A stretch of DNA of 64,000 nt, from contig JBAZUH010000001.1 in assembly GCA_041661545.1 (NCBI GenBank), forward strand, positions 672,148 to 736,147, given 5' to 3'. The notes beneath the pieces are model-generated. The model was not told the DNA's origin. It worked only from the letters and a program-made list of their open reading frames with translations, and did no database searches. The stretch comes from Candidatus Staskawiczbacteria bacterium. Its GTDB lineage: Bacteria > Patescibacteriota > Minisyncoccia > Minisyncoccales > Staskawiczbacteraceae. Each line of letters begins with the position of its first letter. Position 1 is the stretch's first letter. A program made the translations under genes and the position numbers. Positions 46,457-64,000 of the stretch are shown here, piece by piece.

Positions 46457-46488
46457 AACTGCCCCGATGTTGCATCGGGGCAGTTTTT
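46457..46488 (+). terminator. Rho-independent terminator after hpf
   Basis: aactgccccgatg-ttg-catcggggcagtt followed by a T-run. Confidence 0.9.
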
Positions 46489-48935
46489 CGTATAAAGTTA
46501 TATATATGTCATTTTTATCTAAAATTTTTGGAGACCCTAATGAAAAGTTTATAAAAGGCCTTCAACCAATAATCGAAAAAATAAATTCTTTTGAGTCAGA
46601 ATTTGAGAAGTTATCATCTAAGCAATTAAAAGAAAAAACTAAAGAATTTAAACAAAGATTAGCCAGCAATGAAACTTTGGACGATATTTTGCCCGAGGCT
46701 TTTGCATTGGTTAGAGAAGCTGGAAAAAGAACACTAAATCAGCGTCACTTTGATGTTCAAATGGTGGGCGGTATTGTTTTGCATCAAGGCAAAATAGCTG
46801 AAATGAAAACCGGAGAAGGCAAAACCTTGTCGGCTACTCTGCCGGCCTATTTAAACGCTCTAGAAGGCCGTGGAGTGCACGTTGTAACAGTAAACGACTA
46901 TTTGGCCAAACGTGACATGGTTTGGATGGGGCAGGTTTATGGGGCTCTAGGATTGTCTACGGGCTGTATAGTAAACGAGTCTGGGTATGTATATGACGCT
47001 GATTACAAAAATAGCGAATCTGATCAAGAAAGAGATGCAACTGGTAATTTTAAAGTAATTCAAGATTATTTAAAACCAGTATCAAGAAAAGAAGCTTATT
47101 CGGCCGATATTACATATGGAACTAATAATGAATTTGGCTTTGATTATTTAAGAGATAATATGGTTTATGAAAAAAACCAAGAAGCGCAACGCGGACATAA
47201 TTTTGTTATTGTTGACGAAGTAGATTCAATTTTAATTGATGAAGCGCGCGTTCCATTAATAATTTCTGGAGAGTCGGATGACGCAACAGAAAAATATTAT
47301 ACTTTTGCAAAAGTTGTAGCAAATTTAGAAAAGAGCTCCTCGCCTGCGCAGGTAGGAGATTATGAGCTAGATGAAAAAACAAAGTCAGTTGTTTTTACAG
47401 ACCAAGGACAAAATAAAATTGTAAAAAGTTTAGGATTTGATCCATGGTTAGACAATGATATTATTACTACCCATCAATTAGAGTCGGCGTTAAAAGCCAA
47501 AGCATTATTTTTAAAAGATAGAGATTATACCGTAAAAAATGGAGAAATTTTAATTATAGATGAATTTACAGGAAGAATTTTGCCAGGGCGCAGGTGGTCT
47601 GCTGGATTACATCAAGCAGTAGAGGCCAAAGAAGGCGTTGTTGTAAGACCAGAATCTATAACAATGGCCACAATTACTTTTCAGAATTATTTTAGAATGT
47701 ATAAAAAAATATCTGGAATGACTGGAACTGCCATAACTTCGGCCGAAGAATTTGATAAAGTTTATAAGTTAGAGGTAGTAGCAATTCCTTCGCATAGACC
47801 TACTGTTAGACAAGATTTGGCTGATAAAGTTTTTAAAACAGAAGCAGGTAAATTTACAGCTGTTATAAAAGAAATTGAAGAACTTCACAAAAAAGGACAG
47901 CCAATTTTAGTTGGAACAAGATCTGTTGAAAGAAATGAATATTTAGGAAAATTATTAGAAATAAAAGGCATTCCTCACAATATTTTAAATGCAAAGAATC
48001 ACGAAAGAGAAGGAGAAATAGTGGCTCAGGCAGGAAAAGAAGGAGCAGTTACTATTGCTACAAATATGGCTGGACGTGGAGTAGACATTATTTTAGGTGG
48101 CAATCCGCCCAGCACAGAAGAAACTCAAAAGGTTAAAGAATTTGGAGGCCTTCATGTTATTGGCACAGAAAGGCACGACGCTAGAAGAATTGATAATCAA
48201 CTTAGGGGAAGATCTGGAAGACAGGGAGATCCAGGTTCTACACAATTTTTTGTTTCGTTAGAAGACGATTTAATGAGAATTTTTGGTGGTGACAGAATAA
48301 AAGGATTGATGACTGCTTTAAAAATGCCAGAGGATGAACCAATTCAGGCAGGAGTAATATCTGGGGCCATTGAGTCGGCACAAGAAAAAATTGAAGGGTT
48401 TAATTTTGATGCTCGTCATCATTTGTTAGAGTATGATGATGTTTTAAATAAACATAGAGAAATTATTTATAAAAAAAGAAAAGAATATTTAGAGAGTTCT
48501 AATTTGAAAGAAAGGGTTTTAGAAATGTTTCAAAAAGCCGGATTATCAGAAGATGATTATAGTAAAAAAGAAAACGAAATTGGCCAAGAAAATATGAGAC
48601 AAATGGAAAAAGCTATTTCTTTAAGAATTTTAGATTTAGTTTGGCAAGAACATTTGTCTTATATGGATCATATTAGAGATTCTGTTAGGTTAAGAGCTTA
48701 TGGAGGAAGAGACCCATTAGTTGAATATAAAAATGAGGGGCACAAAGCCTTTGGTCAACTATTAGCAACTATAGATGCTAATATTGCAGAAAATATATTA
48801 AAATCAGGGGTACAAGTTAATCAAAATAATCTTCCACAATCAAAAGCTGTTGAGTCAAACAAAAAGGAAATTGGTAGAAATGATTTGTGCCCATGTGGTA
48901 GCGGTAAAAAATATAAAAAATGCCATGGAAAATAA
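46467..48935 (+). CDS. secA: Preprotein translocase ATPase SecA; true start almost certainly ATG 46506 (MSFLSKIFGDPNEK)
   Basis: 'MKTGEGKTL', 'VDEVDSILIDEA', 'GTERHDARRIDNQLRGRSGRQGDPG' and the C-terminal 'CPCGSGKKYKKCHG'. The track start lies inside the upstream terminator. Confidence 0.95.
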   Translation: MLHRGSFSYKVIYMSFLSKIFGDPNEKFIKGLQPIIEKINSFESEFEKLSSKQLKEKTKEFKQRLASNETLDDILPEAFALVREAGKRTLNQRHFDVQMVGGIVLHQGKIAEMKTGEGKTLSATLPAYLNALEGRGVHVVTVNDYLAKRDMVWMGQVYGALGLSTGCIVNESGYVYDADYKNSESDQERDATGNFKVIQDYLKPVSRKEAYSADITYGTNNEFGFDYLRDNMVYEKNQEAQRGHNFVIVDEVDSILIDEARVPLIISGESDDATEKYYTFAKVVANLEKSSSPAQVGDYELDEKTKSVVFTDQGQNKIVKSLGFDPWLDNDIITTHQLESALKAKALFLKDRDYTVKNGEILIIDEFTGRILPGRRWSAGLHQAVEAKEGVVVRPESITMATITFQNYFRMYKKISGMTGTAITSAEEFDKVYKLEVVAIPSHRPTVRQDLADKVFKTEAGKFTAVIKEIEELHKKGQPILVGTRSVERNEYLGKLLEIKGIPHNILNAKNHEREGEIVAQAGKEGAVTIATNMAGRGVDIILGGNPPSTEETQKVKEFGGLHVIGTERHDARRIDNQLRGRSGRQGDPGSTQFFVSLEDDLMRIFGGDRIKGLMTALKMPEDEPIQAGVISGAIESAQEKIEGFNFDARHHLLEYDDVLNKHREIIYKKRKEYLESSNLKERVLEMFQKAGLSEDDYSKKENEIGQENMRQMEKAISLRILDLVWQEHLSYMDHIRDSVRLRAYGGRDPLVEYKNEGHKAFGQLLATIDANIAENILKSGVQVNQNNLPQSKAVESNKKEIGRNDLCPCGSGKKYKKCHGK

Positions 48936-48997
48936 AAATAAAAATATAATTAAAAAACCCGTCAAAAGTTAAAACATTTAGGCGGGCAAGTAAAAAT

Positions 48998-49459
48998 ATG
49001 AGCGAAACAAATAAAAATCATAATGAAGAAGCGCTAATTCCTGAAAGCCTAGATAGCGAAGGGAAAAGACAAGAAGCCATAAACTTTATTAAATATATTA
49101 TACAAAATATGGCTATAAGTGGTGATAAAAATAAAGAACGTGATGTTGCTATGGGTGTTTTACAAAAGTTGGAGGCTGGGTCTATTGATCCAGAAGTAGC
49201 CGTAAAAAGAGTTTGGGATTTGGAAAAATCAATTGCTGAGGCAGGAAACAGTTTAGAAAATACTCTAGAAGTAAAAAAGAAAGAAGCTCACGATTTTGTA
49301 TTTCATATTTTCCATAAAATGGCGGTAAGGGGCGCAAATGATAGTGAATATGGTGCAGTCAGAGATGTTTTAAAAAGATTGGATAATAATGATATAACTC
49401 CAGAAGAGGCTAAAAAAATAATTTGGAATATAGAAAATGAAAAGCAAGATTGGCGATAA
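48998..49459 (+). CDS. Hypothetical helical protein built from an internal duplication
   Basis: 'EAINFIKYIIQNMAISGDKNKERDVAMGVLQKLEAGSIDPEVAVKRVWDLE' versus 'EAHDFVFHIFHKMAVRGANDSEYGAVRDVLKRLDNNDITPEEAKKIIWNIE'. Confidence 0.45.
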   Translation: MSETNKNHNEEALIPESLDSEGKRQEAINFIKYIIQNMAISGDKNKERDVAMGVLQKLEAGSIDPEVAVKRVWDLEKSIAEAGNSLENTLEVKKKEAHDFVFHIFHKMAVRGANDSEYGAVRDVLKRLDNNDITPEEAKKIIWNIENEKQDWR

Positions 49460-49469
49460 TTGTAATTAA

Positions 49470-50348
49470 ATGAAAATATTTAAAATAATAATTTTTATTT
49501 TGATTACGATGGCGTTTTTGGCTGGAGTCTATTTTAGAGATGATGTTGTAAAATTTTATAATAATTTTAATAATCAAGTTAAAAAAATTAATACAGGCAA
49601 CATAGGCTCGGTTATAAATCAAGCTTCTAAAGAACTTTTTACCCCACCACCATTATTGGTTTATAAAAAACCAAACTCGGTAATTTTATTGCAAAGCAAA
49701 ATTATTTTAGAAACTAATTTACAAAGACAGCAAAATGGCGGTTTGCCAGCCTTAAAAGAAAATAATTTGCTTAATAAGGTAGCTTTGGCAAAAGCAAATG
49801 ATATGTTTTCAAAACAATATTTTGAACATATTTCTCCTTTGGGTGTGGGGCCAGGAGAGTTGGCCCAAAAATATGGTTATGAATATATTATTGAAGGTGA
49901 AAATTTAATTTTAGGAAATTTTTCTTCAGAAAAAGAAGTTGTTCAAGCTTGGATGGATAGCCCTGGGCATAGAGAAAATATTTTAAATAATAGATATACA
50001 GAAATTGGAGTTGCAGTAATTAAAGGTATTTATAATGGTGAAACAGTTTGGATTGGAGTGCAAGAGTTTGGGTTGCCATTATCAGCTTGTAATGAGCCAG
50101 ATATAAGTATTAAAAAACAAATTGATTTGAATAATTTGCAATTAAATAATTTAGTTGCTCAGCTAGACAAAGATAGACAGCAAATTAATGATACCGATCC
50201 TAATTCAGAAATTTATGAACAAATGGTAAATGATTATAATAAATTAGTTGCAGAGTATAATTTATTAGCAGATAATACAAAATCTTTGGTTGCTACATAT
50301 AATAAATCAGTAAATAATTTTAATAATTGCGTTAGTGGCACAAGATAA
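49470..50348 (+). CDS. Membrane-anchored CAP/SCP (PR-1-like) domain protein with coiled C-terminus
   Basis: N-terminal TM helix. 'AKANDMFSKQYFEH', 'GENL' and 'VQAWMDSPGHRENILNNRYTEIGVAV'. Confidence 0.7.
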   Translation: MKIFKIIIFILITMAFLAGVYFRDDVVKFYNNFNNQVKKINTGNIGSVINQASKELFTPPPLLVYKKPNSVILLQSKIILETNLQRQQNGGLPALKENNLLNKVALAKANDMFSKQYFEHISPLGVGPGELAQKYGYEYIIEGENLILGNFSSEKEVVQAWMDSPGHRENILNNRYTEIGVAVIKGIYNGETVWIGVQEFGLPLSACNEPDISIKKQIDLNNLQLNNLVAQLDKDRQQINDTDPNSEIYEQMVNDYNKLVAEYNLLADNTKSLVATYNKSVNNFNNCVSGTR

Positions 50349-50927
50349 ATGAAAATTTTAATTGGAACAAATAATTATAATAAGTTTAATGATTATAAAA
50401 TTGTGTTCAATATTTTTGCTCCAAAATTTGAATTATTGCGTCCTAAAGATTTAAACATAGAAGATGACATAGAAGAAGCTGGCAAAACCCTTGCTGAAAA
50501 CGCAATTTTAAAAGCAAAATTCTTTGGAAAAAAATCAGGCATTATAACAATATCTGATGATACAGGATTATTTGTAGACTCGTTAAATGGTGAGCCCGGG
50601 TTGCATGCAAAAAGATGGCACAATGGCACAGAGCACGACAGATGTGTAAAGTTATTAGAAAGGCTTAAAGGAAAAGACAGAAAAGCTAAATATATATGGG
50701 GGTTTGCAGTTTATAATCCTAAAAACGATAAGGCATGGGTATTTGAGCACATAGTTGAAGGGCTAATATCAGATGAATTTAAGAATGGCGGATTTGGTTA
50801 CGATCCTATATTCAAATTAAAATTAATGGATAAATATTATTCACAACTTACAGATGTAGAGCTAGCAAAAATAGGTGGCAGAGGGGTGGCAGTTAAAGAA
50901 TTATTAAAATCAAATTTTTTAAAATGA
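50349..50927 (+). CDS. rdgB: Non-canonical purine NTP pyrophosphatase (HAM1/RdgB family)
   Basis: 'GTNNYNK', 'ENAILKA', 'SDDTGLFVDSLNGEPG' and 'GFGYDPIF'. Confidence 0.8.
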   Translation: MKILIGTNNYNKFNDYKIVFNIFAPKFELLRPKDLNIEDDIEEAGKTLAENAILKAKFFGKKSGIITISDDTGLFVDSLNGEPGLHAKRWHNGTEHDRCVKLLERLKGKDRKAKYIWGFAVYNPKNDKAWVFEHIVEGLISDEFKNGGFGYDPIFKLKLMDKYYSQLTDVELAKIGGRGVAVKELLKSNFLK

Positions 50928-51382
50928 AATTTGCAATAATAGCAGATACACATAATAATTGGGCTAATTTTGAGAAAGCAATTAAATGGATAAATAAACA
51001 AAAAATTCAGTTGATTTTGCATTGCGGAGATATTTCTAGCCAAGATACAATTGATGACGCCAAAAAATTATTTAATGGCGATATAGAGTTTGTTAAAGGA
51101 AATGCTGATTGGGAATTGAATTTGCCAGAGCAAATGGAAATTGAAGTTGAGGGAAAAGAAATTGCATTTACGCATTTTCCCGATATAGCAAAAAAATTAG
51201 CACAATCAGGAAAGTATGATTTAGTTTTTTATGGTCACACTCATAGGCCGTGGGATGAGAAAGTAAATAAAACTCACATGATAAACCCAGGTGAATTAGC
51301 TGGTCAATTTTATAAACCATCATTTGCTGTTTATGACACCGAGTCAGAAAAATTAGAATTAAAAATATTAGAAAAGCTTTAG
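50924..51382 (+). CDS. YfcE/MJ0936-type metallophosphoesterase
   Basis: 'IIADTHNN', 'HCGDI', 'GNAD' and 'YGHTHRP'. Confidence 0.75.
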   Translation: MKFAIIADTHNNWANFEKAIKWINKQKIQLILHCGDISSQDTIDDAKKLFNGDIEFVKGNADWELNLPEQMEIEVEGKEIAFTHFPDIAKKLAQSGKYDLVFYGHTHRPWDEKVNKTHMINPGELAGQFYKPSFAVYDTESEKLELKILEKL

Positions 51383-51386
51383 GGTA

Positions 51387-51414
51387 TTGATTAATTTAAT
51401 GGTTGGGGTATAAT
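51387..51414 (+). promoter_or_regulatory. secD promoter (TTGATT-16 nt-TATAAT)
   Basis: Hexamers read by eye. Confidence 0.55.
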
Positions 51415-51436
51415 AGTCATATTATATAAATTAATT

Positions 51437-52858
51437 ATGCAACAAAAATATTATATATTTATTGGGGTTATAGTCTTAGCTTTATTGGCTGGGATTTTTT
51501 CATATCCAAATTATTACAACAAGGGAGTTGATTTTTTAAATAGTAAAATGTCTTGGACGCTTCCTCATTTTATAGATAAGCCATATATCTTGGGTCTTGA
51601 TTTGCAGGGAGGAGTAAGCTTAGTTTATCAAGCAGATTTAAGTTCTGTTGATAACAAAACTACAGCCATGTCTGGTTTACGAGACGTTATAGAAAGAAGA
51701 GTAAATATGTTTGGAGTTTCAGAGCCTGTTGTTGAAATTCAAGGAACCGACAGATTGCAAGTTGAATTGCCAGGAGTTACAGATGTTGAGCAGGCTATTA
51801 AAATGATTGGAGAAACTCCATATTTAGAGTTTGACGAACAAAGAACAGAAGCAGAATCAAAACCAATTATAGATAAGATTAAAGAATTAGAAGAAGCTCA
51901 AAAAGCAGGAAAAGATATTACAACAATAAAAGATTGGGAAATAGCTTTGCAAAATCCTTATTTTAAACCAACCGAATTAACTGGAAAATATTTAACTAAG
52001 GCAGTTGTTCTTTTTGATCAAACAACTTATCAGCCACAAATACAATTACAATTTAATGACGAAGGTGCTAAAATTTTTGAAGAAATCACTGCTAGAAATA
52101 TTAAAAAACCTATAGCAATATTTTTAGATGGAGCTTCTATTATTGATACTAATGGTGACGAAAAAATTGATGCACAAGATAATTATGCTCCAATTGTGCA
52201 AGATAAAATTACCGGAGGTAGGGCCGTAATAACAGGAGATTTATCAAGTCAAACAGCAAATTCTATTGCTTTAAGATTAAACTCAGGGGCATTGCCAGTT
52301 AAAATTGGTTCTCCAATATCTCAAGATAGAGTGGGCCCTACTTTGGGAGCCTCTTCATTGCAGAAATCTTTGACAGCTGCTATATTTGGACTTTTAGCAG
52401 TAGTCATTTTTATGATAATATTTTATAGGTTGCCAGGATTATTGGCTAGTTTTGCACTTGTAATATATGTGGCAATAACACTTTCTATATTCAAACTTAT
52501 TCCAGTAACAATGACATTATCTGGTATTGGTGGTTTTATACTTTCTATAGGTATGGCTGTTGATGCTAATATCTTAATTTTTGCTAGAATGAAAGAAGAA
52601 ATAAAATTAGGCAAGGGATTAGACCAAGCCATTCAAGAGGGTTTTAAAAGAGCATGGCCGTCTATTAGAGATAGTAATATTAATTCGTTAATTGTTTGTG
52701 CAATTTTGTTTGTTGTAGCAACATCTTTTATTAAAGGATTTGCGTTTACATTAGCATTGGGCATTTTAGTAAGTTTGTTTTCAGCAATATTTATAACAAG
52801 AATTTTCTTAATGGTTTTTGTTGGCAAGTGGGCCGAAAAAGCTAAGTGGATCCTGTAA
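51437..52858 (+). CDS. secD: Protein translocase subunit SecD
   Basis: N-terminal TM helix, a large periplasmic domain ('LGLDLQGG') and a C-terminal 5-TM bundle ('GIGGFILSIGMAVDANILIFARMKEE'). Confidence 0.9.
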   Translation: MQQKYYIFIGVIVLALLAGIFSYPNYYNKGVDFLNSKMSWTLPHFIDKPYILGLDLQGGVSLVYQADLSSVDNKTTAMSGLRDVIERRVNMFGVSEPVVEIQGTDRLQVELPGVTDVEQAIKMIGETPYLEFDEQRTEAESKPIIDKIKELEEAQKAGKDITTIKDWEIALQNPYFKPTELTGKYLTKAVVLFDQTTYQPQIQLQFNDEGAKIFEEITARNIKKPIAIFLDGASIIDTNGDEKIDAQDNYAPIVQDKITGGRAVITGDLSSQTANSIALRLNSGALPVKIGSPISQDRVGPTLGASSLQKSLTAAIFGLLAVVIFMIIFYRLPGLLASFALVIYVAITLSIFKLIPVTMTLSGIGGFILSIGMAVDANILIFARMKEEIKLGKGLDQAIQEGFKRAWPSIRDSNINSLIVCAILFVVATSFIKGFAFTLALGILVSLFSAIFITRIFLMVFVGKWAEKAKWIL

Positions 52859-52860
52859 TA

Positions 52861-52945
52861 TTCGCTCGGTAAATAATTTTTTCTGCGGGGAGAGCCTCTC
52901 TACGGGGCACCCTCTCCTCTAAAAAATTATTTACCTCGCTTCAAT
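52861..52945 (+). other. Highly structured secD-secF intergenic element (15-bp perfect outer stem ggtaaataatttttt/aaaaaattatttacc, GC-rich inner stems)
   Basis: Read directly from the sequence. Homologous in flanks and architecture to 15010..15125. Confidence 0.8.
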
Positions 52946-52951
52946 TTTTTT

Positions 52952-53857
52952 ATGGAATTTAATTTTACAAAATATTCAAAAGTTTATTATATTATTTCGG
53001 GCGTCTTGATTGTTACGTCTATTGTTTTTTTGTCTATTTATGGATTAAAGTTTGGAATTGAATTTGTTGGAGGAAGTAACATGGAAATTAGTTTCCAAGA
53101 AGCTAGGCCTTTAAATGAATCTATTAACAATGCTTTAACAAGTTTTAATTTAGGACAAATAACAGTTCAACCTACAGGAGAAAAAGATGCTATTTTAAGA
53201 TTTAAAGGAGTTGATGAAAATGTTCATCAACAAATATTAGCAGAAATAAATAAATTATCGCCAGTAACAGAAAAAAGTTTTCAATATATTGGTCCATCGG
53301 TTGGCCAAGAACTAAGAAACAAAACACAACTAGCTATAGTAATAGCTTTATTGGCTATAACAATGTATATTGCATTTGCTTTTAGAAAAGTTTCTAAACC
53401 TGTTAGCTCATGGAAATACGGCATTGCTTCTTTAATAGCATTGGTTCATGATGTTTTAATACCACTAGGAGTATTTTCTTTATTAGGTCATCTTTATAAT
53501 GTTGAGATTACAATTCCAATTATTGCAGCCTTACTGACAGTTTTAGGTTTTTCGGTTCACGATACAATTGTTATTTTTGATAGAATCAGAGAAAATATTT
53601 TAAGAAGGGGAATGGGGCAGTTTGAAGAAACAGTAAATTTAAGTTTAACTCAAACATTAGGCAGGTCTGTTAGCACGGTTTTAACAGTAGAGTTTGTGCT
53701 AATTTCTCTATACTTTTTTGGAGGCCAAACCCTTAAAGATTTTGCATTAGCTTTAATTATTGGTATAACTTCGGGTGCATATTCGTCTATATTTATAGCA
53801 GGCCCTCTTTTAGTATCTTGGTACAAAAAAGGTGCTAAAAAAACAGCTAAAAGGTAA
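52952..53857 (+). CDS. secF: Protein translocase subunit SecF
   Basis: 'GIEFVGGS' and 'HDVLIPLGVFSLLG ... GFSVHDTIVIFDRIRE'. Confidence 0.9.
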   Translation: MEFNFTKYSKVYYIISGVLIVTSIVFLSIYGLKFGIEFVGGSNMEISFQEARPLNESINNALTSFNLGQITVQPTGEKDAILRFKGVDENVHQQILAEINKLSPVTEKSFQYIGPSVGQELRNKTQLAIVIALLAITMYIAFAFRKVSKPVSSWKYGIASLIALVHDVLIPLGVFSLLGHLYNVEITIPIIAALLTVLGFSVHDTIVIFDRIRENILRRGMGQFEETVNLSLTQTLGRSVSTVLTVEFVLISLYFFGGQTLKDFALALIIGITSGAYSSIFIAGPLLVSWYKKGAKKTAKR

Positions 53858-54985: not shown

Positions 54986-55000
54986 GTTGTTTATTTATAT

Positions 55001-55048
55001 CCCCCCAAATGGTAACATTTTTTGTGTCAAAAAATGTTATTTGGGAGG
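55001..55048. repeat. Imperfect palindrome P3 (CCCCCCAAATGGTAACATTTTTTGTG | TCAAAAAATGTTATTTGGGAGG)
   Basis: The arms are complementary apart from a 3-nt bulge and one mismatch. Same family as P1/P2. Lies at the left edge of the GC-rich islet. Confidence 0.85.
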
Positions 55049-55058
55049 ATGCCTATGC

Positions 55059-55090
55059 AAAAAAAAGCAGTTGATGGTTAGTCAGACTGC
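55059..55090 (-). terminator. Terminator of the minus-strand DHOD-like operon
   Basis: gcagt/actgc stem with an A8 run on + (T8 on the minus strand). Abuts the stop codon. Confidence 0.5.
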
Positions 55091-56085
55091 TAGCTGAAGA
55101 GCCGTTGGGCTTTTCTGATTATCGCTTGCACTCGTCGAGGACGAAGTGTGCCAACACACCCCAGGGACACAGAATCTGCACCTGCGAGGAAGAGAGAGAC
55201 TATTTCGTCAGATGACATAATCCCTCCGCCAGCACATATATGAGTATCAATGTTAGCGAGTTTGGCCTTATTAAGCCATTCTATCACCAGCGGGAGCAAT
55301 GGTTTCCCGGAAAGAGCTCCGCCCCCAAATTCATGCAAGGGCGAAATATCTGTCCCAAAAAGCTCTTGGCGATCTATTCCTACACGAGGTAAATCATCCC
55401 AATGAATCGTGTTAGACAAACATATTGCGCCTAGATGATGGTTGCATCTTCTGCATATCTCCCGGACATCTTTCACCGGAGTCAACACGTTAAATTTCCA
55501 CATCAGTGGAATGCGTAGGCGATGAGCCAACATAACTCCGCGACAGACTTCATCAATATTGGCTAGGTCATCGGGATTTAGTCCAGCGTTTGGGCAAGAA
55601 CAATTCACCTGTAGACCTACGGGCGCCTTAAAAGAGTCCAGGTGATTGCCCAATAGTTGCAGAAATCGTTCTAACTCATTTAACCGTTTGTCGGGCGTAT
55701 TTTCGACCGACATAAATGAGAGGAAAAATGGTTCGGTGCGTTGTTGCCAGATGCCTTTCTCCAGCAGTGCTTCAGCGCCGATGTTTGAAAGGTCAACTGC
55801 ATTGAGCATAATGCCCAATCTGAACATTCTAAGCGATAACTTCCTGTATCCGGAATGGTAGTTTGGCAGGATGCATCGAGGCGAAAGTTCTTTTGGCGTT
55901 ACGCCATCTTCTTTTAAGGGCATGTTCCCTGCGTGAGGAGGCCCCGTTGTAGTTTTTGCTACAAAGGTAGAACCTGTCCAATTGGGCCTAAAAGGCCATA
56001 TTTGATGTTTGAAGTACCCTCCGAAGACTCCTCGAGCACCCGAAGCGCAAAAAGTTGGATTAAAATCTATGCCTTGTATTTTCAT
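55090..56085 (-). CDS. Dihydroorotate-dehydrogenase-family (class 1 DHOD/DHPD-like) FMN TIM-barrel oxidoreductase, GC-rich
   Basis: 'FNPTFCASG', 'FVAKTTTGPPHAGN', 'VNCSCPNAG', 'LSNTI', 'GGGALSGKPL' and 'CAGGGIMSSDEIVSLFLAGADSV' match the DHOD-family signature positions. Confidence 0.7.
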   Translation of the reverse strand: MKIQGIDFNPTFCASGARGVFGGYFKHQIWPFRPNWTGSTFVAKTTTGPPHAGNMPLKEDGVTPKELSPRCILPNYHSGYRKLSLRMFRLGIMLNAVDLSNIGAEALLEKGIWQQRTEPFFLSFMSVENTPDKRLNELERFLQLLGNHLDSFKAPVGLQVNCSCPNAGLNPDDLANIDEVCRGVMLAHRLRIPLMWKFNVLTPVKDVREICRRCNHHLGAICLSNTIHWDDLPRVGIDRQELFGTDISPLHEFGGGALSGKPLLPLVIEWLNKAKLANIDTHICAGGGIMSSDEIVSLFLAGADSVSLGCVGTLRPRRVQAIIRKAQRLFS

Positions 56086-56279
56086 GGCTTCTTATCGGAC
56101 GAAGTTTTAACTGTTGGTTCAAGATTGCGGGGTATACGCCCTGGAAAGCGTTTAGCAAATATGTGGCAACAGTAATGATATATCGTTTTGCATGCCGAAT
56201 GGTGGCAGACCTGGTCAACAGCATTCCCTGGCCCACACTTGTGGATTAATGGGCAGGGACGATCCATTTTCATTTTCAT
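56082..56279 (-). CDS. Cys/His-rich 65-aa mini-ORF translationally coupled (ATGA) to the DHOD-like gene
   Basis: 'MKMKMDRPCPLIHKCGPGNAVDQVCHHSACKTIYHYCCHIF...'. SD-like AAGGAA lies 7 nt upstream. It fills the otherwise unexplained GC-rich 200 nt upstream of the enzyme gene. Confidence 0.35.
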   Translation of the reverse strand: MKMKMDRPCPLIHKCGPGNAVDQVCHHSACKTIYHYCCHIFAKRFPGRIPRNLEPTVKTSSDKKP

Positions 56280-56421: not shown

Positions 56422-56646
56422 ATGGATATTTTTTGGACAGGCATAATTACTTTACTTGTTACAACAGCAGTATTTTATATTGTTTTATTTTCGTTCATAT
56501 ATTATTGGCACTTAAAAAAAATTAGTTTTGTTGCTGTGCCAGCAATTTTTGCTTTTGAATTTTTTATAACAGGATTTTTTATTGTAGTAATAGTTTCATT
56601 TGTTTTGCAGTATTTGCCTTATATATTTAAATTATCTGGTGCATGA
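56422..56646 (+). CDS. 74-aa two/three-TM miniprotein, first gene of the ATPase module
   Basis: Entirely hydrophobic. Its stop overlaps the next start (ATGA at 56643). Confidence 0.5.
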   Translation: MDIFWTGIITLLVTTAVFYIVLFSFIYYWHLKKISFVAVPAIFAFEFFITGFFIVVIVSFVLQYLPYIFKLSGA

Positions 56647-58031
56647 GCGTAAAATTACCTTCATATTTATTTTGGTGGGAATGGGTTAAAAAAATTATCT
56701 GGGATCCATTTTGGTGGGTAATTTTATTTATAATTATTTTGTGGGTTCCATTTTTAAGAGTATGGTGGTGGGTATTTTTACCTTGGATGCTTCAAGCTCA
56801 GTTGAAGATAGTTTATATTTGGTATCTTAATTGGGACTATGATTATCAAAAACAAAAATGGATTTTATTAGAAATTACTCCACTTGAATCAATGCTTATG
56901 CCACTTAAAGCCATGGAAGATGTATTTGCTGCAATTTGGCCGTTAATGGATGTGGCTAACTTTAGAGAAAAATGGTGCGATGGAGAATTAGCATGGGGGC
57001 CTTATTGGTGCTCTTGGGAATTAGCTAGCGTTGAAGGGCAAATTCATTTTTATGTAAGAGCTTTGTCTCAACATAGACATAGCATAGAATCTTCATTGTG
57101 GGGCCATTATCCCGATATAGAAATTAAAGAAGTGGCTGACTATGTTAAATTAGTTCCACCAACAGTTCCAAATGAAGAGTGGGATATGTATGGTGAAGAT
57201 TGGGACTTTAGAAGAGAGCCTCAATATCCTATTAAAACATATCCAAGTTTTTTTGAACCCCAAGGCGAAAGAATTTCTGCAGAAGAAAAAAGAATTGATC
57301 CCATTATCTCTTTGTTAGAAGCTATGTCTAAACTAGGGCCAGGAGAGCATTACTGGGTGCAATTTACCACAGTTCCAGTTGGTGAAAAAGATGAACCGAA
57401 TTGGCAAAAAGAGGGCCAGAAAATAGTAAATAAAATAGCAAAGCGCCCAGAGAAAAAAGAAATTACTTTTTTCCAAATGTTATCTCACACATTTGGTGAG
57501 CTTATTTCTGGCCCCGTTAAAGATGGTGAAAAATATAGTTGGGTACCTTTAGAAATTGATGAAGAAACTGATGAGCTAAGAACATCACTCACTCCCGGAG
57601 AAAGAGAGGTTATAACAGAAGTTGAGAACAAACTGAAAAAGCCAATTTTTAGAACTAATATAAGAGGAGTTTATGTTGCTAAACGAGAGGCATGGAAAGC
57701 TTCGCATAGAGTTATTACTCGTACATATATGGGTCATTTTAGTCATGTTCATATGAATAGCTTTGGATTTCAGAGCAAAACAAGGCCAAGGGTTCACTTT
57801 TTTATGAGAAAGAGAAGAGTTTTTATGAGAGCTAGAAAAATGTTTAGAATGGCAGTTTTAAGATTTCCACCTATGTATCCCGATAGGCAACAATTATGTC
57901 CAATTTTAAGTACCGAAGAAATGGCAACATTGTGGCACTTCCCATTAAGAGTTTCTGGAGGTAGCTTGGCTATGCCTAAAATTGAATCCAAAAAAGCTGG
58001 TCCACCGCCTAATTTGCCAATTGAGGAATAA
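56643..58031 (+). CDS. 462-aa membrane protein of unknown family (Trp-rich double TM + large soluble domain)
   Basis: 'FWWEWVKKIIWDPFWWVILFIIILWVPFLRVWWWVFLPW'. The soluble part ends in 'LSTEEMATLWHFPL'. No family recognised. Confidence 0.6.
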   Translation: MSVKLPSYLFWWEWVKKIIWDPFWWVILFIIILWVPFLRVWWWVFLPWMLQAQLKIVYIWYLNWDYDYQKQKWILLEITPLESMLMPLKAMEDVFAAIWPLMDVANFREKWCDGELAWGPYWCSWELASVEGQIHFYVRALSQHRHSIESSLWGHYPDIEIKEVADYVKLVPPTVPNEEWDMYGEDWDFRREPQYPIKTYPSFFEPQGERISAEEKRIDPIISLLEAMSKLGPGEHYWVQFTTVPVGEKDEPNWQKEGQKIVNKIAKRPEKKEITFFQMLSHTFGELISGPVKDGEKYSWVPLEIDEETDELRTSLTPGEREVITEVENKLKKPIFRTNIRGVYVAKREAWKASHRVITRTYMGHFSHVHMNSFGFQSKTRPRVHFFMRKRRVFMRARKMFRMAVLRFPPMYPDRQQLCPILSTEEMATLWHFPLRVSGGSLAMPKIESKKAGPPPNLPIEE

Positions 58032-58048
58032 TATAATCTACGAATTTT

Positions 58049-60025
58049 ATGTCAAAAGATTTAACTTATATTGCTAAAACAAATTTTCGCGATAAAGAGC
58101 AAATATTCGGAATTAAAAGGCCCGATAGACGTCAGCATATGTATGTAATTGGAAAAACTGGAGCCGGAAAAACAGCTTTTTTAAAAAATATGGCCTTGCA
58201 AGATATTGAAAATGGGCAAGGGCTTGCTATTATTGATCCTCACGGAGAATTTGTTGAAGAAGTTTTAGATAATATTCCTGCTCATAGAATGAATGATGTG
58301 GTTTATTTTAATCCTGCTGATATGGAGCATCCTATTAGTTTTAATATTATGGATGTTCAAGATCCAAAATACAAACACTTAATTGCTTCGGGATTAATTG
58401 GTATTTTTACTAAAATTTGGGCAAACGTATGGTCAGCTAGAATGGAATATATTTTAGCTAATTGTATTTTGGCTTTGTTAGATACTCCTGGCACTACTCT
58501 TTTAGGCATACCAAGAATGTTAGTTGATAGAGATTACAGGCAAAAAATTATTAATAATCTTAAAGATCCAGTAGTAAAATCATTTTGGGTTAATGAATAT
58601 GAAGAGTGGGAGCCTAGATACAGAAATGAAGCCATAGCTCCAGTTCAAAATAAAGTAGGGCAATTTTTAAATGTTTCTTTTGTAAGAAATATTGTTGGTC
58701 AAGCAAGAAGCACCATTAATGTTGAAGATATAATGAATAACCAGAAAATTTTGCTGGTCAATGTTTCTAAGGGAAGAATTGGAGAAGATAACTCGTCTAT
58801 TTTAGGAGCTATGCTTATTACTAAAATACAGTTGTCTGCTATGGAGCGCGTTAGAATTCCCGAAGACGAAAGAAAAGATTTTTATTTATATGTTGACGAG
58901 TTCCAAAATTTTGCCACAGACTCTTTTGTTAATATTTTATCAGAGGCTCGTAAATATAGATTAGATTTAACTATTGCTCACCAATACATTGGACAGCTAA
59001 CTACCGATACAAGCACCGCTGTAAGGGATGCTGTTTTTGGTAACGTAGGCACAATGATTTCATTTCGTGTGGGTGCAGCTGACGCAGAATTTTTGGAACA
59101 AGAATTTACTCCAGAATTTTTGCAGAATGATTTAATTCGTTTGCCTAATTACAATATTTATTTAAAACTTATGATAGACGGCATTGCTTCTAGGCCTTTT
59201 TCTGCTAAAACTATTGCGCCTCCTCCCCTTGCAAAAGATGACAAAAAAAGAGAAGAAATAATTAAAATTTCTAGATCAAAATATGCCCATACTGTAAAAG
59301 AAGTTGAAGAAGAAATTAATCGTTGGGCTGGTAGTATAGATGTGCCTGTTAATAATAATGGTTCTTCTGATATTTCTAATCCTCAACGTTCTCAAGATTT
59401 TCCTAAACGGCAAAACCAATCAAATGCTCCTCGTTCACCTGACCAGCCAAAGTTATATGATGTTAAGTGTTCAAGCTGTGGAAAAGACACAAAAGTTATT
59501 TTTCCTCCAGAGCCAGGAAGAGCTGTTTATTGTAAAAATTGTTTAAAAAAGTTAAAGGAACAGCAAGGACAATCTCAGCAAGCAGGGTCAAGTCAGTCAA
59601 AATCAAATTCTCCTGCAAGAGAATCAGTTAAAACTCCGCAGGCTAATTCAAGCAGAAAATCTTCGAGTAACTCAGTTTTGGCGGGCATGGGCATAGAATT
59701 TGCCCCGTCACCCGATGTAGCACCAAGTCGCCAGGTTAGTAGACCTAGCTCTATGACTGGGCGAGCGTCGCCTCACTCCGAAAAAAAATCAGCTCCTGGG
59801 CAATCTTTAGATAATATAATAAAAACAGCAGAGCGAGTTTCTTTTAGTTCAAATAGAAATAAAGAAAATAAAAAGCCACGCAAGGAAGTAGATTTGGGCG
59901 ATTTAAAAAAGGCATTAGAGGAATCTTTATCAAAAACAGATTATAAACCTAAGGATTCTCAAGACGAATTAAAGCAAAGATTAGAGGAAGAAAAATTTGA
60001 GGATAAAGTATCAGAGGAAAAATAA
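58049..60025 (+). CDS. TraD/VirD4/TraG-like (FtsK-HerA superfamily) P-loop ATPase with low-complexity tail carrying a CxxC-x17-CxxC zinc ribbon
   Basis: Walker A 'VIGKTGAGKTAF', Walker B 'FYLYVDEFQNF', 'LTIAHQYIGQL'. Tail 'CSSCGKDTKVIFPPEPGRAVYCKNC' at 59468..59542. Confidence 0.7.
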   Translation: MSKDLTYIAKTNFRDKEQIFGIKRPDRRQHMYVIGKTGAGKTAFLKNMALQDIENGQGLAIIDPHGEFVEEVLDNIPAHRMNDVVYFNPADMEHPISFNIMDVQDPKYKHLIASGLIGIFTKIWANVWSARMEYILANCILALLDTPGTTLLGIPRMLVDRDYRQKIINNLKDPVVKSFWVNEYEEWEPRYRNEAIAPVQNKVGQFLNVSFVRNIVGQARSTINVEDIMNNQKILLVNVSKGRIGEDNSSILGAMLITKIQLSAMERVRIPEDERKDFYLYVDEFQNFATDSFVNILSEARKYRLDLTIAHQYIGQLTTDTSTAVRDAVFGNVGTMISFRVGAADAEFLEQEFTPEFLQNDLIRLPNYNIYLKLMIDGIASRPFSAKTIAPPPLAKDDKKREEIIKISRSKYAHTVKEVEEEINRWAGSIDVPVNNNGSSDISNPQRSQDFPKRQNQSNAPRSPDQPKLYDVKCSSCGKDTKVIFPPEPGRAVYCKNCLKKLKEQQGQSQQAGSSQSKSNSPARESVKTPQANSSRKSSSNSVLAGMGIEFAPSPDVAPSRQVSRPSSMTGRASPHSEKKSAPGQSLDNIIKTAERVSFSSNRNKENKKPRKEVDLGDLKKALEESLSKTDYKPKDSQDELKQRLEEEKFEDKVSEEK

Positions 60026-60122: not shown

Positions 60123-61706
60123 ATGGAATATAAATCTGAAAATAAGGTTTGTCAGAACTGCAAAAAAGACTTTGTTGTAGAGCCTGATGATTTTGCGTTC
60201 TATGAAAAAATGAAAGTGCCCGCACCAACATGGTGCCCAGAATGTCGCATAGTCAGAAGGTTTATGTGGCGCAACGAGCAGAATCTTTTTAGAAGGAAGT
60301 GTCAGACACCGGGGCATAATGAATACCTAATTACAATATTTCATCCAGATGCACCGGTAATAGTTTATGATCAAGAATATTGGTGGTCGGACAAATGGGA
60401 TGTAATGAGCTATGGACGTGATTATGATTTTTCAAAACCATTTTTTGAACAATTTGATGAATTACTCCATTTGGTTCCGCTTCCTCATGTTGCTAATACC
60501 AATTCACCAGATTGTGAATATTGTCATTCACTTCTTAGCTGTAAAGATTGCTATATGACTTTTGTGTCAGATTTTGATGAAAATGTTATGTATACTTCTC
60601 AATCCAATAATATTAAAGATTCTATGGACTGTTTTTGGCTTAGTAACTCTAGCGAAAAATGCTATGAGTTAGTAGACAGTCAAAAATGTTATAATGTTAA
60701 GTTTAGTCGGTTTGCAATTGAATGTAGAGATTCCTCGTATTTATATGATTGCAGAGATTGTTCAAATTGTTTTGCTTGTGTAGGCTTGCGAAGTAAAAAA
60801 TATTATATTTTTAATCAACCATATTCTAAAGAAGAATATTTTAATAAAGTAAAAAATATTTCTGCAGAAGAAGCAATAGAATTTATAAATTCAAAACCAC
60901 GTTCATTTTGCACGTTTAAAAATGCCGTAAATTGTTCTGGAGAAAATATCAACCATTCTAGAAATTGTAAAAATTGTTTTGGAATTAACGAGGGCGAAAA
61001 TTTAAGGTGGGTTCAAGACTCTGTTAAAATAAAAGATGCTTATGATTGTTTTGGTAGTGGATATGGAGATTTAATAAACGATTCTATGAGCATTTTAGGT
61101 TCGCGTATATCTTACAGCAAGCGCGTTTGGTATTCTAATGATGTCCAATATTCTTATTATTGTTACAACTCGTCTGACTTATTTGGGTGTATAGGCCTTA
61201 GAAAAAAGAAGCATTGTATTTTTAATAAACAATATTCAAAGGATGAATATATAAAATTACGAGAAAAAATTATAGAGCATATGAAAAAAACAGAAGAATA
61301 TGGACAATTTTTCCCCTTAGAGCTGTCTCCTTTTGCATACAATGAAACACTTGCTCAAGATTATTTTCCTTTAACTGAAAAAGAAGCAAAAGAAAAAGGA
61401 TATTTATGGAGAGAAAAAATAAAAACAGAATATAATGGTAGCGAAGATAGTGTATTTAAATGCAAAAAGTGTGATAGTTATTTTAAAATTATTGAACGCG
61501 AGCAACAATTTTATGATAAGATGAGTTTGCAAAAACCAGAATATTGTTTTTCCTGCCGTCATAATAAAAGATTATCTTCGAGAACGCCATTTAAATTATG
61601 GAATCGTCAGTGTACAAAATGTAAAAAAGAAATTGAAACCTCTTATGCACCAGATAGGCCAGAAATAGTTTATTGTGAGCAATGTTATAATCAAGAAGTT
61701 GCATAA
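60123..61706 (+). CDS. Cys-rich multi-zinc-ribbon / Cys-ladder repeat protein, paralogue 1
   Basis: N-terminal 'CQNCKKDFVVEPDDFAFYEKMKVPAPTWCPECR'. Two central repeat blocks each end in 'C.GLR.KKY.IFN..YSKEEY'. C-terminal double ribbon '..CKKCDSYFKI...FYDKM..CFSCRH.. CTKCKKEIETSYAPDRPEIVYCEQCY'. Confidence 0.7.
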   Translation: MEYKSENKVCQNCKKDFVVEPDDFAFYEKMKVPAPTWCPECRIVRRFMWRNEQNLFRRKCQTPGHNEYLITIFHPDAPVIVYDQEYWWSDKWDVMSYGRDYDFSKPFFEQFDELLHLVPLPHVANTNSPDCEYCHSLLSCKDCYMTFVSDFDENVMYTSQSNNIKDSMDCFWLSNSSEKCYELVDSQKCYNVKFSRFAIECRDSSYLYDCRDCSNCFACVGLRSKKYYIFNQPYSKEEYFNKVKNISAEEAIEFINSKPRSFCTFKNAVNCSGENINHSRNCKNCFGINEGENLRWVQDSVKIKDAYDCFGSGYGDLINDSMSILGSRISYSKRVWYSNDVQYSYYCYNSSDLFGCIGLRKKKHCIFNKQYSKDEYIKLREKIIEHMKKTEEYGQFFPLELSPFAYNETLAQDYFPLTEKEAKEKGYLWREKIKTEYNGSEDSVFKCKKCDSYFKIIEREQQFYDKMSLQKPEYCFSCRHNKRLSSRTPFKLWNRQCTKCKKEIETSYAPDRPEIVYCEQCYNQEVA

Positions 61707-61829: not shown

Positions 61830-63500
61830 ATGGAAAAATCACAAATTAAAATATGTCAGAATTGTAAGAGCGAGTTCGTAATAGAGCTCGATGATTTTGC
61901 ATTTTACGAAAAAATGAAAGTGCCTGCACCAACATTTTGTCCAGAGTGTCGATTTAAAATGCTAGCTATTTGGAGAAATGAAATGTCATTATATTCTAGT
62001 AAAAAATGTGACATGTGTGGTAAAAACATAATAACAATGTATAACCCAAAATCGCCATACAAAGTGTATTGTTACCAATGCTATATGTCTGATTCGTGGG
62101 ATGCACGAGATTATATGAGAGATTATGATTTTTCTCGTCCGTTTTTTGAACAATTTAATAGTCTGCTCAAAGATGTTCCCAAAAAAAACACTTCCATTGA
62201 TGCATCCTCTGGACCAAATATTAATAGTGAATATGCAAATTATGCAGGTGGCATGAAAGATTGTTATATGGTTTTTAATAGCATAGGAGAGCAGATGATG
62301 TATTGCCGAGGAATCCGGGAATCGAAAGAAACAGTAGATTCATATTTTGGAGAACATTTAGAAAAATGTTATGAATGTGTTAATGTTTTTAAATCAAGTG
62401 GTTTAATTTTTGCCAGAAATACCTATAATTCTATGGATTCTGCTTTTGTGATAAACTGCAATGGCTTAAATAATTGTTTTGGTTGCGTCAATTTAAGAAA
62501 CAAATCATATCATTTTATGAATGAATTATTATCTCGAGAAGAATACATTAAAAAAATTGGAGAAATAATGGGTAGTTATTCAAAAATGGAAGAATTTAAA
62601 GAAAAATTTGTAAAATTTGCTTTGACTTTTCCTAGGAAAGAGAATAATAATATTAAAAATGTTAATTCTAATGGAGACTTTTTGTCAGAATGTAAAGACG
62701 TAGATAACAGTTTCGAGGTAATAGGGGCTGAAAATTCTAAGAACATTTTTTCTTCTAGAGCCATTCACAACGCAGATGGGTCTATAGGTTTTGGAACTAA
62801 AAGTGAATTGTTCTTTAATTGTTTAGGATCGGGTTTCTCAAGCAATATTATATGTTCTTGCTCTGTTTCGAGCTCGCATAATATATTATATTCTTTTGGA
62901 TTGATAAATTGTCATGATTGCATGGGTTGTGATAGTTTGAAGAATTCTGAATATTGTATTTTGAATAAACAATATACTAAAGAAGAATACGAAAAATTAA
63001 AAGAAAATATTGTAGGAGAACTTGCTAAACAAGGATTATATGGGCTGATGATTCCGTCAGAGTTTTCTCCTTTTGGCTATAATGAAACTTTGGCTTATGA
63101 TAATATGCCTCTTACCAAAGAAGAGGCGATAGCTCAAGGTTTTCGTTGGGAAGACGATATTCAAATGACAACAGGCAAAGAAACCCTGCAGCTGGGAGAA
63201 ATATCCGATCACATTAAAGATGTAAATAGCACTATAACAAAGGAGATATTAAAATGTATAAGCTGTGAAAGAAATTATAAAATTGCAGAACAAGAGTTAT
63301 CGTTATACAAAAAAATGAATATTCCAATTCCAAGAAAATGTTTTTTTTGTCGTCACCAGGATAGGCTTAGAAGAAGGGGTCCTTATAAATTTTGGAATAG
63401 AAAATGTGATCATTGTGGAAAGGAAATAAATACTAATTATGCTCCCGATAGGCCAGAAATAGTTTATTGTGAAAGCTGTTACAATAACGAGGTAGCGTAG
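61830..63500 (+). CDS. Cys-rich multi-zinc-ribbon / Cys-ladder repeat protein, paralogue 2
   Basis: Same architecture as paralogue 1. The second N-terminal ribbon is intact ('CDMCGKNIITMYNPKSPYKVYCYQCY'). Confidence 0.7.
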   Translation: MEKSQIKICQNCKSEFVIELDDFAFYEKMKVPAPTFCPECRFKMLAIWRNEMSLYSSKKCDMCGKNIITMYNPKSPYKVYCYQCYMSDSWDARDYMRDYDFSRPFFEQFNSLLKDVPKKNTSIDASSGPNINSEYANYAGGMKDCYMVFNSIGEQMMYCRGIRESKETVDSYFGEHLEKCYECVNVFKSSGLIFARNTYNSMDSAFVINCNGLNNCFGCVNLRNKSYHFMNELLSREEYIKKIGEIMGSYSKMEEFKEKFVKFALTFPRKENNNIKNVNSNGDFLSECKDVDNSFEVIGAENSKNIFSSRAIHNADGSIGFGTKSELFFNCLGSGFSSNIICSCSVSSSHNILYSFGLINCHDCMGCDSLKNSEYCILNKQYTKEEYEKLKENIVGELAKQGLYGLMIPSEFSPFGYNETLAYDNMPLTKEEAIAQGFRWEDDIQMTTGKETLQLGEISDHIKDVNSTITKEILKCISCERNYKIAEQELSLYKKMNIPIPRKCFFCRHQDRLRRRGPYKFWNRKCDHCGKEINTNYAPDRPEIVYCESCYNNEVA

Positions 63501-63554: not shown

Positions 63555-64000
63555 ATGAATCAAGAAACACATCAATGTCAAAACTGCAAACAAGACTTTA
63601 TTATAGAGCCTGATGATTTTGCGTTCTATGAAAAAATGAAGGTGCCCGCCCCAACATTTTGTTCAGAATGTAGATTGCAGAGAAAATTAGCTTTTCGTAA
63701 CGAAAGAACTTTATACAAAAATATATGCAAAAAATGTAATAAAAGCCTTATTTCAATGTATAGAGAAGGCGGTCCAATGACCGTATATTGTCGAGATTGT
63801 TGGTATTCTGACTCATGGAATCCTATGAGCTATGGGTATGATTATAATTTTTCGCAATCATTTTTTGAACAATTTAAAAAATTGTTTCATGCAGTCCCAG
63901 TGGTAAACTTGTGGACTCCACAGTCAATGAATTCTGAGTATACTAATTTTGCTACAGAAAATAAAAATTGTTATCTTTCGTTTGGCGGGAAGACGTGCGA
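63555..64000 (+). CDS. Cys-rich multi-zinc-ribbon protein, paralogue 3 (5' part, runs off the window)
   Basis: My own translation: MNQETHQCQNCKQDFIIEPDDFAFYEKMKVPAPTFCSECRLQRKLAFRNERTLYKNICKKCNKSLISMYREGGPMTVYCRDCWYSDSWNP... It is absent from the ORF track because no stop falls inside the window. Confidence 0.7.
   Translation, partial: MNQETHQCQNCKQDFIIEPDDFAFYEKMKVPAPTFCSECRLQRKLAFRNERTLYKNICKKCNKSLISMYREGGPMTVYCRDCWYSDSWNPMSYGYDYNFSQSFFEQFKKLFHAVPVVNLWTPQSMNSEYTNFATENKNCYLSFGGKTC

Follow-up and report, generated by a model that had tools for sequence, protein, structure and literature searches.

Type IV coupling proteins (T4CPs), among them VirD4, TraD, TrwB and DotL, belong to a family of ATPases that are DNA-binding translocases and whose C-terminal extensions recruit substrates. 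Precedents for recruitment through the tail, by a C-terminal extension or an all-alpha domain, are known for VirD4, DotL and TraD: TraD binds TraM, and DotL forms complexes with adaptors that include the zinc protein DotN. A relative of these ATPases is encoded in the DNA analysed here, a stretch of 64,000 nucleotides (64 kb) from a Candidatus Staskawiczbacteria bacterium (Patescibacteriota; assembly GCA_041661545.1, contig JBAZUH010000001.1, positions 672,148 to 736,147), which is referred to as the window and numbered from its first nucleotide. The gene (58049-60025, plus strand) specifies a VirD4/TraG-like ATPase of the T4CP superfamily with 658 amino acids (aa), the tail of which carries a small Cys4 finger of the form CxxC-x17-CxxC; genes for cysteine-rich paralogues, which carry sequence-related, diverged copies of the same finger, follow directly downstream. 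With the coupling proteins the ATPase shares the Pfam core, the Walker motifs and a long C-terminal extension with small conserved elements. Unlike them, it is devoid of an N-terminal transmembrane (TM) domain, the place of which is taken by the products of two separate genes just upstream (u74 and U462). None of the literature searched mentions a Cys4 finger in the tail of a T4CP.

By analogy, the locus also resembles that of the Xanthomonas type IV secretion system (T4SS) effectors (X-Tfes), which reportedly have in common a conserved C-terminal domain (XVIPCD) recognised by VirD4: several paralogous proteins with a conserved C-terminal domain are likewise encoded near a VirD4-like ATPase. 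The present paralogues, which are found in the Candidate Phyla Radiation (CPR), differ from the X-Tfes in that they are conserved along their whole length and form stable, old subfamilies, with neither a recognisable toxin domain nor secretion channel genes nearby, and in that the ATPase itself also carries the shared domain. A further likeness, to tandem Cys4 modules on a nucleic-acid enzyme with some degenerate copies, is offered by bacterial topoisomerase I, the C-terminal zinc ribbons of which bind single-stranded DNA and in part keep their fold as Cys-less copies. There is no sequence relationship to these ribbons, however, and a treble clef instead of a two-knuckle ribbon is predicted for the finger described here.

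The finger domain is already known and named. Its entries in Pfam (PF23477) and NCBIfam (TIGR04272) describe the same domain, and its fusion to an ATPase is mirrored in database names ('CxxC-x17-CxxC domain-containing protein'). Known PF23477 members are small proteins with stand-alone or tandem fingers, as in Methanosarcina mazei, whereas it occurs here as a single copy in the tail of a 658-aa ATPase and as diverged, sub-threshold copies at both ends of paralogues of about 550 aa. We know of no function for any TIGR04272/PF23477 member. In the literature search, no description of the paralogue family, of its clustering with the ATPase pair or of the shared finger was found.

Among 5,713 T4CP genes of Patescibacteria, 148 lie near virB4; for the orphan VirD4-like ATPases of this group a possible exaptation has been raised, and the gene is non-essential in Ca. 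S. epibionticum (PMC12102498). Thousands of such ATPase genes are not located beside any T4SS. With the cluster described below (u74, U462, the ATPase, paralogue arrays and a second ATPase), the orphan ATPase becomes part of a defined, biochemically testable system, in which a tractable zinc module of about 35 residues is common to the motor and its neighbours, and which includes more than 6,500 uncharacterised Cys-rich proteins with a predicted fold for which the PDB and BFVD gave no match. The finger as such was known before, and little about function follows from its presence alone.

Copies of the finger motif in the window

All six reading frames of the window were scanned with a regular expression for CxxC-x17-CxxC. 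Five matches were obtained, all of them inside the ATPase and paralogue genes, where about 0.07 would be expected by chance from the Cys frequency and a mean of 0.025 was found after residue shuffling. The ATPase copy (CSSCGKDTKVIFPPEPGRAVYCKNC, nt 59468-59542) comprises Cys 474, 477, 495 and 498 of the protein; the two complete paralogues carry their C-terminal copies at nt 61611-61685 (paralogue 1, CTKCKKEIETSYAPDRPEIVYCEQC) and nt 63405-63479 (paralogue 2, CDHCGKEINTNYAPDRPEIVYCESC). An earlier note on this DNA had quoted these three peptides and had claimed an identical 2-17-2 spacing of the Cys residues in the ATPase tail and at the C-terminus of every complete paralogue. The peptides were letter-exact in the translated open reading frames (ORFs), and the spacing was recovered by the scan in all three places.

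Two further copies, absent from that note, are located in the N-terminal parts of paralogue 2 (62007-62081) and of a third paralogue truncated by the window end (63726-63800). The N-terminal x17 copy of paralogue 1 is degenerate, with three of its four Cys residues gone. Every x17 finger of the paralogues is preceded by a second, PF13451-like finger of the form CxxC-x24-CxxC (starting at 60150, 61461, 61854, 63255 and 63576). The core that had been proposed for all three peptides, Pro-x-(R/G)-x-x-VYC, had to be revised, as it fits neither protein exactly: the ATPase reads P-G-R-A-VYC and the paralogues P-D-R-P-E-I-VYC. Common to both in register within the 17-residue spacer are an aromatic residue at position 8, Pro-10, Val-16 and Tyr-17.

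Domain identity, homology and predicted fold

The ATPase finger passed the cut-offs of both curated models, with 42.6 bits against PF23477 (zf_Tbcl_2, 'probable treble clef zinc finger'; gathering cut-off (GA) 27) and 43.8 bits against TIGR04272 ('CxxC-x17-CxxC domain'; cut-off 36). The Cys spacing of the domain is the same, and its consensus (C-s-x-C-G-k-x(3)-V-P-F-k-P-x(3)-R-P-V-Y-C-x-x-C) fits the ATPase finger. The paralogue fingers scored below GA with PF23477 (19.3 bits for paralogue 1, 22.2 bits for paralogue 2); with TIGR04272, paralogue 2 reached 18.4 bits, under the cut-off, and paralogue 1 was not matched. For the x24 fingers, PF13451 (zf_Tbcl, GA 24) gave 24.4 bits with paralogue 1, as a whole-protein score over two matched stretches, and 17.2 bits, under GA, with paralogue 2.

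Three finger-specific hidden Markov models (HMMs) were built from 63 ATPase fingers, 34 C-terminal and 36 N-terminal paralogue fingers of related loci. The ATPase-finger HMM recognised the C-terminal paralogue fingers with a median of 27.7 bits, the reverse comparison gave 30.4 bits, and the cross-score medians between the ATPase and paralogue sets ranged from 22 to 30 bits. Shuffled fingers with the Cys residues fixed scored about 3 bits (± 3-4) and reached at most 15 bits in one direction and 22 bits in the other; none attained the real median. Because the cross-profile scores far exceed those of the shuffles, the motifs of ATPase and paralogues are, at the level of sequence, homologous copies, those of the paralogues being diverged relatives and not members of the curated families. 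The idea that a single small domain is common to the ATPase and the paralogues is thereby supported.

The earlier note had called this domain a ribbon, and in this respect the description changes. In the AlphaFold2 (AF2) model of the ATPase the finger consists of a beta-hairpin and a helix beginning with the second CxxC, and paralogue 1 has the same topology; in either protein the second CxxC thus marks the N-terminal end of a helix (residues 496-507 after C495 in the ATPase, residues 519-525 after C518 in paralogue 1). In a classical zinc ribbon both CxxC pairs lie in beta-hairpin knuckles, which is not the arrangement in these models; a treble clef is predicted instead. The full-length ATPase model is poor overall (predicted local distance difference test score (pLDDT) 55) and was used for the finger and its flanks alone, for which pLDDT values of 82-90 (aa 470-500) versus 28-37 were obtained. 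Judged from these models, the element is best explained as an independently folding Cys4 zinc finger of the treble-clef type. A sequence search of the PDB with the finger returned no significant relative (eS27, an HVO_2753-like protein and RpoP, best E = 0.007). Zinc was found by inductively coupled plasma mass spectrometry in two small M. mazei proteins with this domain (PMC12704099); by analogy, the fingers of the ATPase and the paralogues would also bind zinc.

Distribution of the finger

The finger HMMs and the regular expression were applied to 21,892 stop-to-stop ORFs (40 aa or longer) from 2.1 Mb of related CPR DNA. At E <= 0.01 the carriers were orthologues of the ATPase, paralogues and a few paralogue fragments, and nothing else; the handful of remaining regular-expression matches look incidental. 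In the 64 kb of this genome and the 2.1 Mb of related loci, the finger is thus restricted to these two families and not scattered over dozens of unrelated proteins.

A phmmer search with the finger against 1.84 billion cluster representatives gave 686 matches. The best 150 of these comprised 44 pieces of ATPase tails and 106 other proteins, which are mostly small (median 203 aa) and consist of 2-5 tandem fingers joined by Arg/Gly-rich linkers. The linkers contain 15% Arg and 10% Gly, RGG-type motifs were present in 42 of 85, and the mean net charge was +5.6 per 100 aa; such an Arg/Gly-rich, basic composition of the RGG type is typical of nucleic-acid-binding proteins. PF23477 occurs in more than 3,100 clusters and is the sole Pfam match in most of the listed cases. 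Named examples of tandem-finger proteins come from Thermoplasmatota, Heimdallarchaeota, Methanomicrobiales and the CPR lineage Candidatus Andersenbacteria, and carry no fused ATPase domain. There is hardly anything but fingers in the tandem-finger RGG proteins, and some activity must therefore reside in the domain itself; because such proteins exist in archaea and CPR while ATPases without paralogues keep the finger, its role predates the paralogues and does not depend on them.

Phage entries in GenBank yielded distant, fingerless ATPases (Bacillus phages and others) and one weak match to the C-terminal module of the paralogues. With PADLOC, generic similarity to the HerA and mad8 ATPases was all that was returned, and a known defence system was not supported.

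Conserved neighbourhood of ATPase and paralogues

Synteny was evaluated with 71 species loci from GTDB centred on the ATPase and with 31 metagenome loci, each 12 kb or longer, centred on a paralogue. In 33/71 species loci, the ATPase has one to six or more paralogues as immediate neighbours on its own strand. Typically, U462 comes first, followed by the ATPase, several paralogues, a second ATPase and further paralogues; in several lineages, 4-6 or more paralogues stand in a row immediately upstream of the ATPase instead. Conversely, the ATPase or its sister was encountered in 17/31 of the loci centred on a paralogue. Arrays that consist of paralogues only also occur, and the present genome holds more copies at distant locus tags.

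The second ATPase, designated T4CP2, is VirD4-like as well, has about 490 aa with about 46% identity, and is found inside the paralogue arrays of about 25 loci (for example L001:19386-20861). It has neither the zinc finger nor the long tail. The window stops short of the position at which T4CP2 would be expected.

The proposed link between the ATPase and paralogue gene sets is established by this conserved synteny (33/71 and 17/31), independently of the finger. That the finger is the main link, as had also been suggested, is not borne out: the array-embedded T4CP2 is fingerless, and in lineages with housekeeping neighbours and no paralogue within 10 kb the finger of the ATPase is still nearly invariant. 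In loci without flanking paralogues (L023, L033, L035, L036, L059 and L066; L037-L053), the neighbours were judged by eye from translations. One group of these loci has ComEC-like and MnmA-like genes downstream of the ATPase, and a second group has genes for phosphoglycerate kinase, a RecJ-like DHH protein and RNase H there. The RecJ-like, RNase H and ComEC neighbours, read in this way, give a weak hint that the ATPase belongs to a conserved housekeeping or DNA-handling context.

The ATPase and its tail

The ATPase is composed of a nucleotide-binding core (aa 1-428) and a tail (aa 429-658). It matched PF10412 (54.1 bits, GA 20.5), PF02534 (27.8 bits, GA 20.1) and PF12696 (25.0 bits, GA 22) above cut-off, and its sequence contains recognisable Walker A (GKTGAGKT) and Walker B (YVDEFQ) motifs. 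The same Pfam set recurs in more than 8,000 homologues. Against the NCBIfam equivalogs (TraD, CD1115, CedD and others) all scores were far under cut-off, the best being 58 bits versus the required 366 for TIGR03743. No TM segment was found in the protein, as no stretch reached a Kyte-Doolittle hydropathy (KD) of 1.6 across the 658 aa; the TM segments reside in u74 and U462. The protein is best explained as a soluble VirD4-like ATPase that is nearly universal in Patescibacteria.

The tail is rich in Ser, Lys, Pro and Gln, has a net charge of +10 and is predicted to be disordered save for the finger and a few short conserved helices. The finger spans aa 469-502 (59453-59554, plus strand; supported by PF23477, TIGR04272 and AF2) and contains four of the five Cys residues of the ATPase. 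Its 2-17-2 spacing is conserved in 64 ATPase orthologues; nearly all orthologues retain it, a finger having gone undetected in a few ATPases (L031, L035 and L036), and it is one of the regions of the tail that are best conserved across CPR. It is basic, with a mean net charge of +4.3 (+2.9 for the finger helix).

Other conserved islands in the tail are 'ALADLGIEF' (nt 59672-59701, aa ~542-551), an invariant Phe (~59843, aa 599) and 'LxxLxKALEESL' (59894-59929, aa 616-627). Short helices were predicted by AF2 at the first and the last of these, and the islands are candidate linear interaction motifs. A 364-aa ATPase tail fragment (P0251) contains two finger copies, indicating tandem duplication within the tail of some orthologues. 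On three contigs labelled Absconditabacteria, SR1 and Peribacteria (L067-L069), the ATPase homologue is fragmented under translation table 11, which we attribute to the alternative genetic code of these lineages, and the finger status is unreadable.

The cysteine-rich paralogues

Paralogue 1 (60123-61706, plus strand) has 527 aa with 33 Cys residues and neither a signal peptide nor a TM segment. Its N-terminal x24 finger (60150-60245) is followed by the degenerate x17 finger; the degenerate N-terminal form appears as 'KCDAPGH...VYD' in the family consensus. At the other end, the x24 finger (61461-61556), on which the best PF13451 stretch falls (aa 441-483), precedes the intact x17 finger, which gave 27.8 bits with the ATPase-finger HMM, and the protein stops 6 aa past the last Cys. 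Paralogue 2 (61830-63500, plus strand; 556 aa, 31 Cys residues) is identical to paralogue 1 at about 40% of positions by BLAST and 43% in a MAFFT alignment, versus 78% to a copy in the locus of another species. It carries x24 fingers at 61854-61949, the one scored with PF13451, and at 63255-63350; its N-terminal x17 finger scored 57.3 bits with the N-finger HMM and 22.6 bits with the ATPase-finger HMM, and its C-terminal one 31.8 bits with the latter. Of paralogue 3, the N-terminal part is contained in the window (63555-64000, plus strand), with an x24 finger at 63576-63671 ahead of the x17 finger; it was classed as 'Par' by tblastn/blastp. All intact fingers in these proteins were located by regular expression on the plus strand.

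The paralogues consist of about 6% Cys and combine an acidic, internally duplicated core with basic terminal two-finger modules. The net charge of the C-terminal module is +4 to +7; the C-terminal x17 finger alone has a mean of -0.4, and the last 10 residues from the second CxxC (CExCYNxEVA) a mean of -1.2. More than 6,500 homologues were found, every named one from CPR, and no match was obtained in IMG/VR. The core is not covered by any Pfam family, and the AF2 fold of paralogue 1 (pLDDT 81.5, predicted template modelling score (pTM) 0.84, N-terminal fingers above pLDDT 90) matched nothing in the PDB or BFVD.

Among 246 full-length paralogues (L001-L151), the x17 spacer and the second CxxC of the C-terminal finger are essentially invariant, and in 245 of these proteins precisely 6 residues follow the last Cys. 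The first knuckle is CxxC in 63 of the 246 (26%) and otherwise Cx4C or CxC-x10-C with His. Median best identity was 67% to a copy in another locus versus 44% to a sibling in the same locus, the outside copy being the closer one in 99%. Because identity between loci exceeds that within loci, the paralogues are unlike rapidly diversifying effectors, and this candidate explanation, together with that of antigenic variants, was rejected. From these sequence comparisons the arrays are old, conserved subfamilies, conserved along the whole length of the proteins.

A proposed shared ligand and the alternatives

Composition and context lead us, tentatively and with somewhat less than even confidence, to regard the finger as a general zinc-dependent binding module through which the ATPase tail and the paralogues would be placed on a common nucleic-acid or nucleoprotein substrate; a shared ligand is the best reading and likelier than mutual recognition of the fingers. 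Nucleic acid would be the most economical ligand because the linkers of the tandem-finger proteins are basic and of the RGG type, because the ATPase finger, the ATPase tail and the C-terminal module of the paralogues are basic, and because the ATPase descends from DNA translocases. On this proposal, the finger is an autonomous module with a role older than either host family; in the ATPase it would act as a single folded bead on a disordered basic tail of about 230 residues, and the ATPase would work with the membrane proteins u74 and U462. The diverged fingers of the paralogues, each paired with a CxxC-x24-CxxC finger, would flank the acidic Cys-rich core, and tail and paralogues would contact the same polymer or nucleoprotein. 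A division of labour may follow, in which the paralogues hold the substrate or organise it and the ATPase, tethered to the membrane, acts on it.

Several observations weigh against a shared nucleic-acid ligand. The C-terminal x17 finger of the paralogues is not basic, which makes it a poorer fit to nucleic-acid binding; the compact model of paralogue 1 leaves room for fingers that are structural parts and not free modules; and RGG-type linkers mediate protein-protein contacts too. Two more points would favour direct recognition, in which the fingers of ATPase and paralogues bind each other, or the paralogue C-terminus docks, and the paralogues are substrates or adaptors: the paralogue end is invariant in length (245/246) and nearly so in sequence (CExCYNxEVA-stop), resembling a recognition determinant, and the charges of the ATPase finger helix (+2.9) and of the paralogue finger end (-1.2) are complementary. 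Direct recognition, which we consider unlikely but a serious contender, is further consistent with the same-strand adjacency in 33/71 species, which survives rearrangement of the arrays from downstream to upstream, with the presence of the ATPase or T4CP2 in 17/31 long paralogue-centred loci, with the placement of the finger on a disordered tail, the usual site of substrate or adaptor recognition in T4CPs, and with paralogues that have no signal peptide or TM segment. It is at odds with the fingerless T4CP2 of the arrays, with the equal conservation of the ATPase finger where no paralogue is nearby, and with the thousands of small tandem-finger proteins of archaea and one CPR lineage that have no fused ATPase or paralogue domain. 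Moreover, the paralogue subfamilies are old and conserved over their whole length, unlike typical polymorphic effectors, and folded proteins stabilised by zinc are poor T4SS substrates. Finally, the large ORFs of the window that were scanned include no VirB4-like or other T4SS channel gene, and few T4CP genes of Patescibacteria lie near virB4 (PMC12102498).

The fingers could instead be zinc-stabilised staples derived from one mobile domain, perhaps copied from a neighbouring gene, with no shared ligand or recognition and with the link between the proteins made via other surfaces. The compact paralogue model, in which the N-terminal fingers are predicted as if integral to the fold, agrees with such a structural role, as do the many members with Cys-less degenerate N-fingers or a variant first knuckle in which the surrounding sequence is kept, the divergence of the paralogue fingers below the Pfam and NCBIfam cut-offs, and the finger-free T4CP2. 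A staple is nevertheless hard to reconcile with the ATPase finger, an isolated bead on a disordered tail that has nothing to staple and yet is well conserved, and with the tandem-finger RGG proteins, which contain little besides fingers; we regard this explanation as improbable. Coincidence, that is, a 2-17-2 spacing that arose by chance or convergence in unrelated ribbons and an accidental adjacency of the genes, might be entertained since Cys4 motifs are common, the paralogues are rich in Cys and some CxxC-x17-CxxC matches in their central repeats are incidental. The excess of five copies over the 0.07 or 0.025 expected, the failure of any Cys-fixed shuffle to reach the median real cross-profile score and the conservation of synteny across orders make it extremely improbable, and a chance motif was rejected on these grounds.

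It is conceivable, although we consider it doubtful, that u74, U462, the ATPase, the fingerless sister ATPase and arrays of 3-7 paralogues constitute an undescribed CPR-specific machine for the handling of nucleic acid or nucleoprotein or for protein delivery, in which the finger would couple paralogues or cargo to the motor. Taken alone, the finger is an ordinary mobile zinc module, and how the proteins cooperate is not established by it.

Upstream partners and surroundings

The cluster is opened by u74 (56422-56646, plus strand), a membrane protein of 74 aa with hydrophobic segments of KD >= 1.6 and no Pfam match, which is kept directly upstream of U462 in many loci. U462 (56643-58031, plus strand; 462 aa) has an N-terminal membrane anchor with a TM segment at aa ~15-48, and its gene immediately precedes that of the ATPase in most of the 71 loci. 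U462 and the ATPase match successive parts of phrog_5156, a phage profile of 824 positions (positions 156-289 and 402-805, respectively), and are therefore fused in some phage proteins, which suggests that the two act as one unit.

Farther away, at 16139-18031, an ORF of 630 aa without a Pfam match at E <= 1e-5 is located amid polysaccharide and O-antigen-ligase-like genes. Just upstream of the cluster, 46467-53857 contains SecA, recognised by Pfam and with a SEC-C zinc motif at its end, together with SecD and SecF as judged from translations; these genes are separated from the cluster by a protein with sigma-70 region 4 and HARE-HTH similarity and by an island of elevated GC content. The island (55000-56100, 46-47% GC versus 30-33% in the genome) lies immediately upstream of u74, U462 and the ATPase. 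It harbours a gene on the minus strand (55090-56085) in a region with nearly all genes on the plus strand, the product of which gave a weak dihydroorotate-dehydrogenase-like match (PF01180, 36.6 bits), and was probably acquired recently by horizontal transfer.

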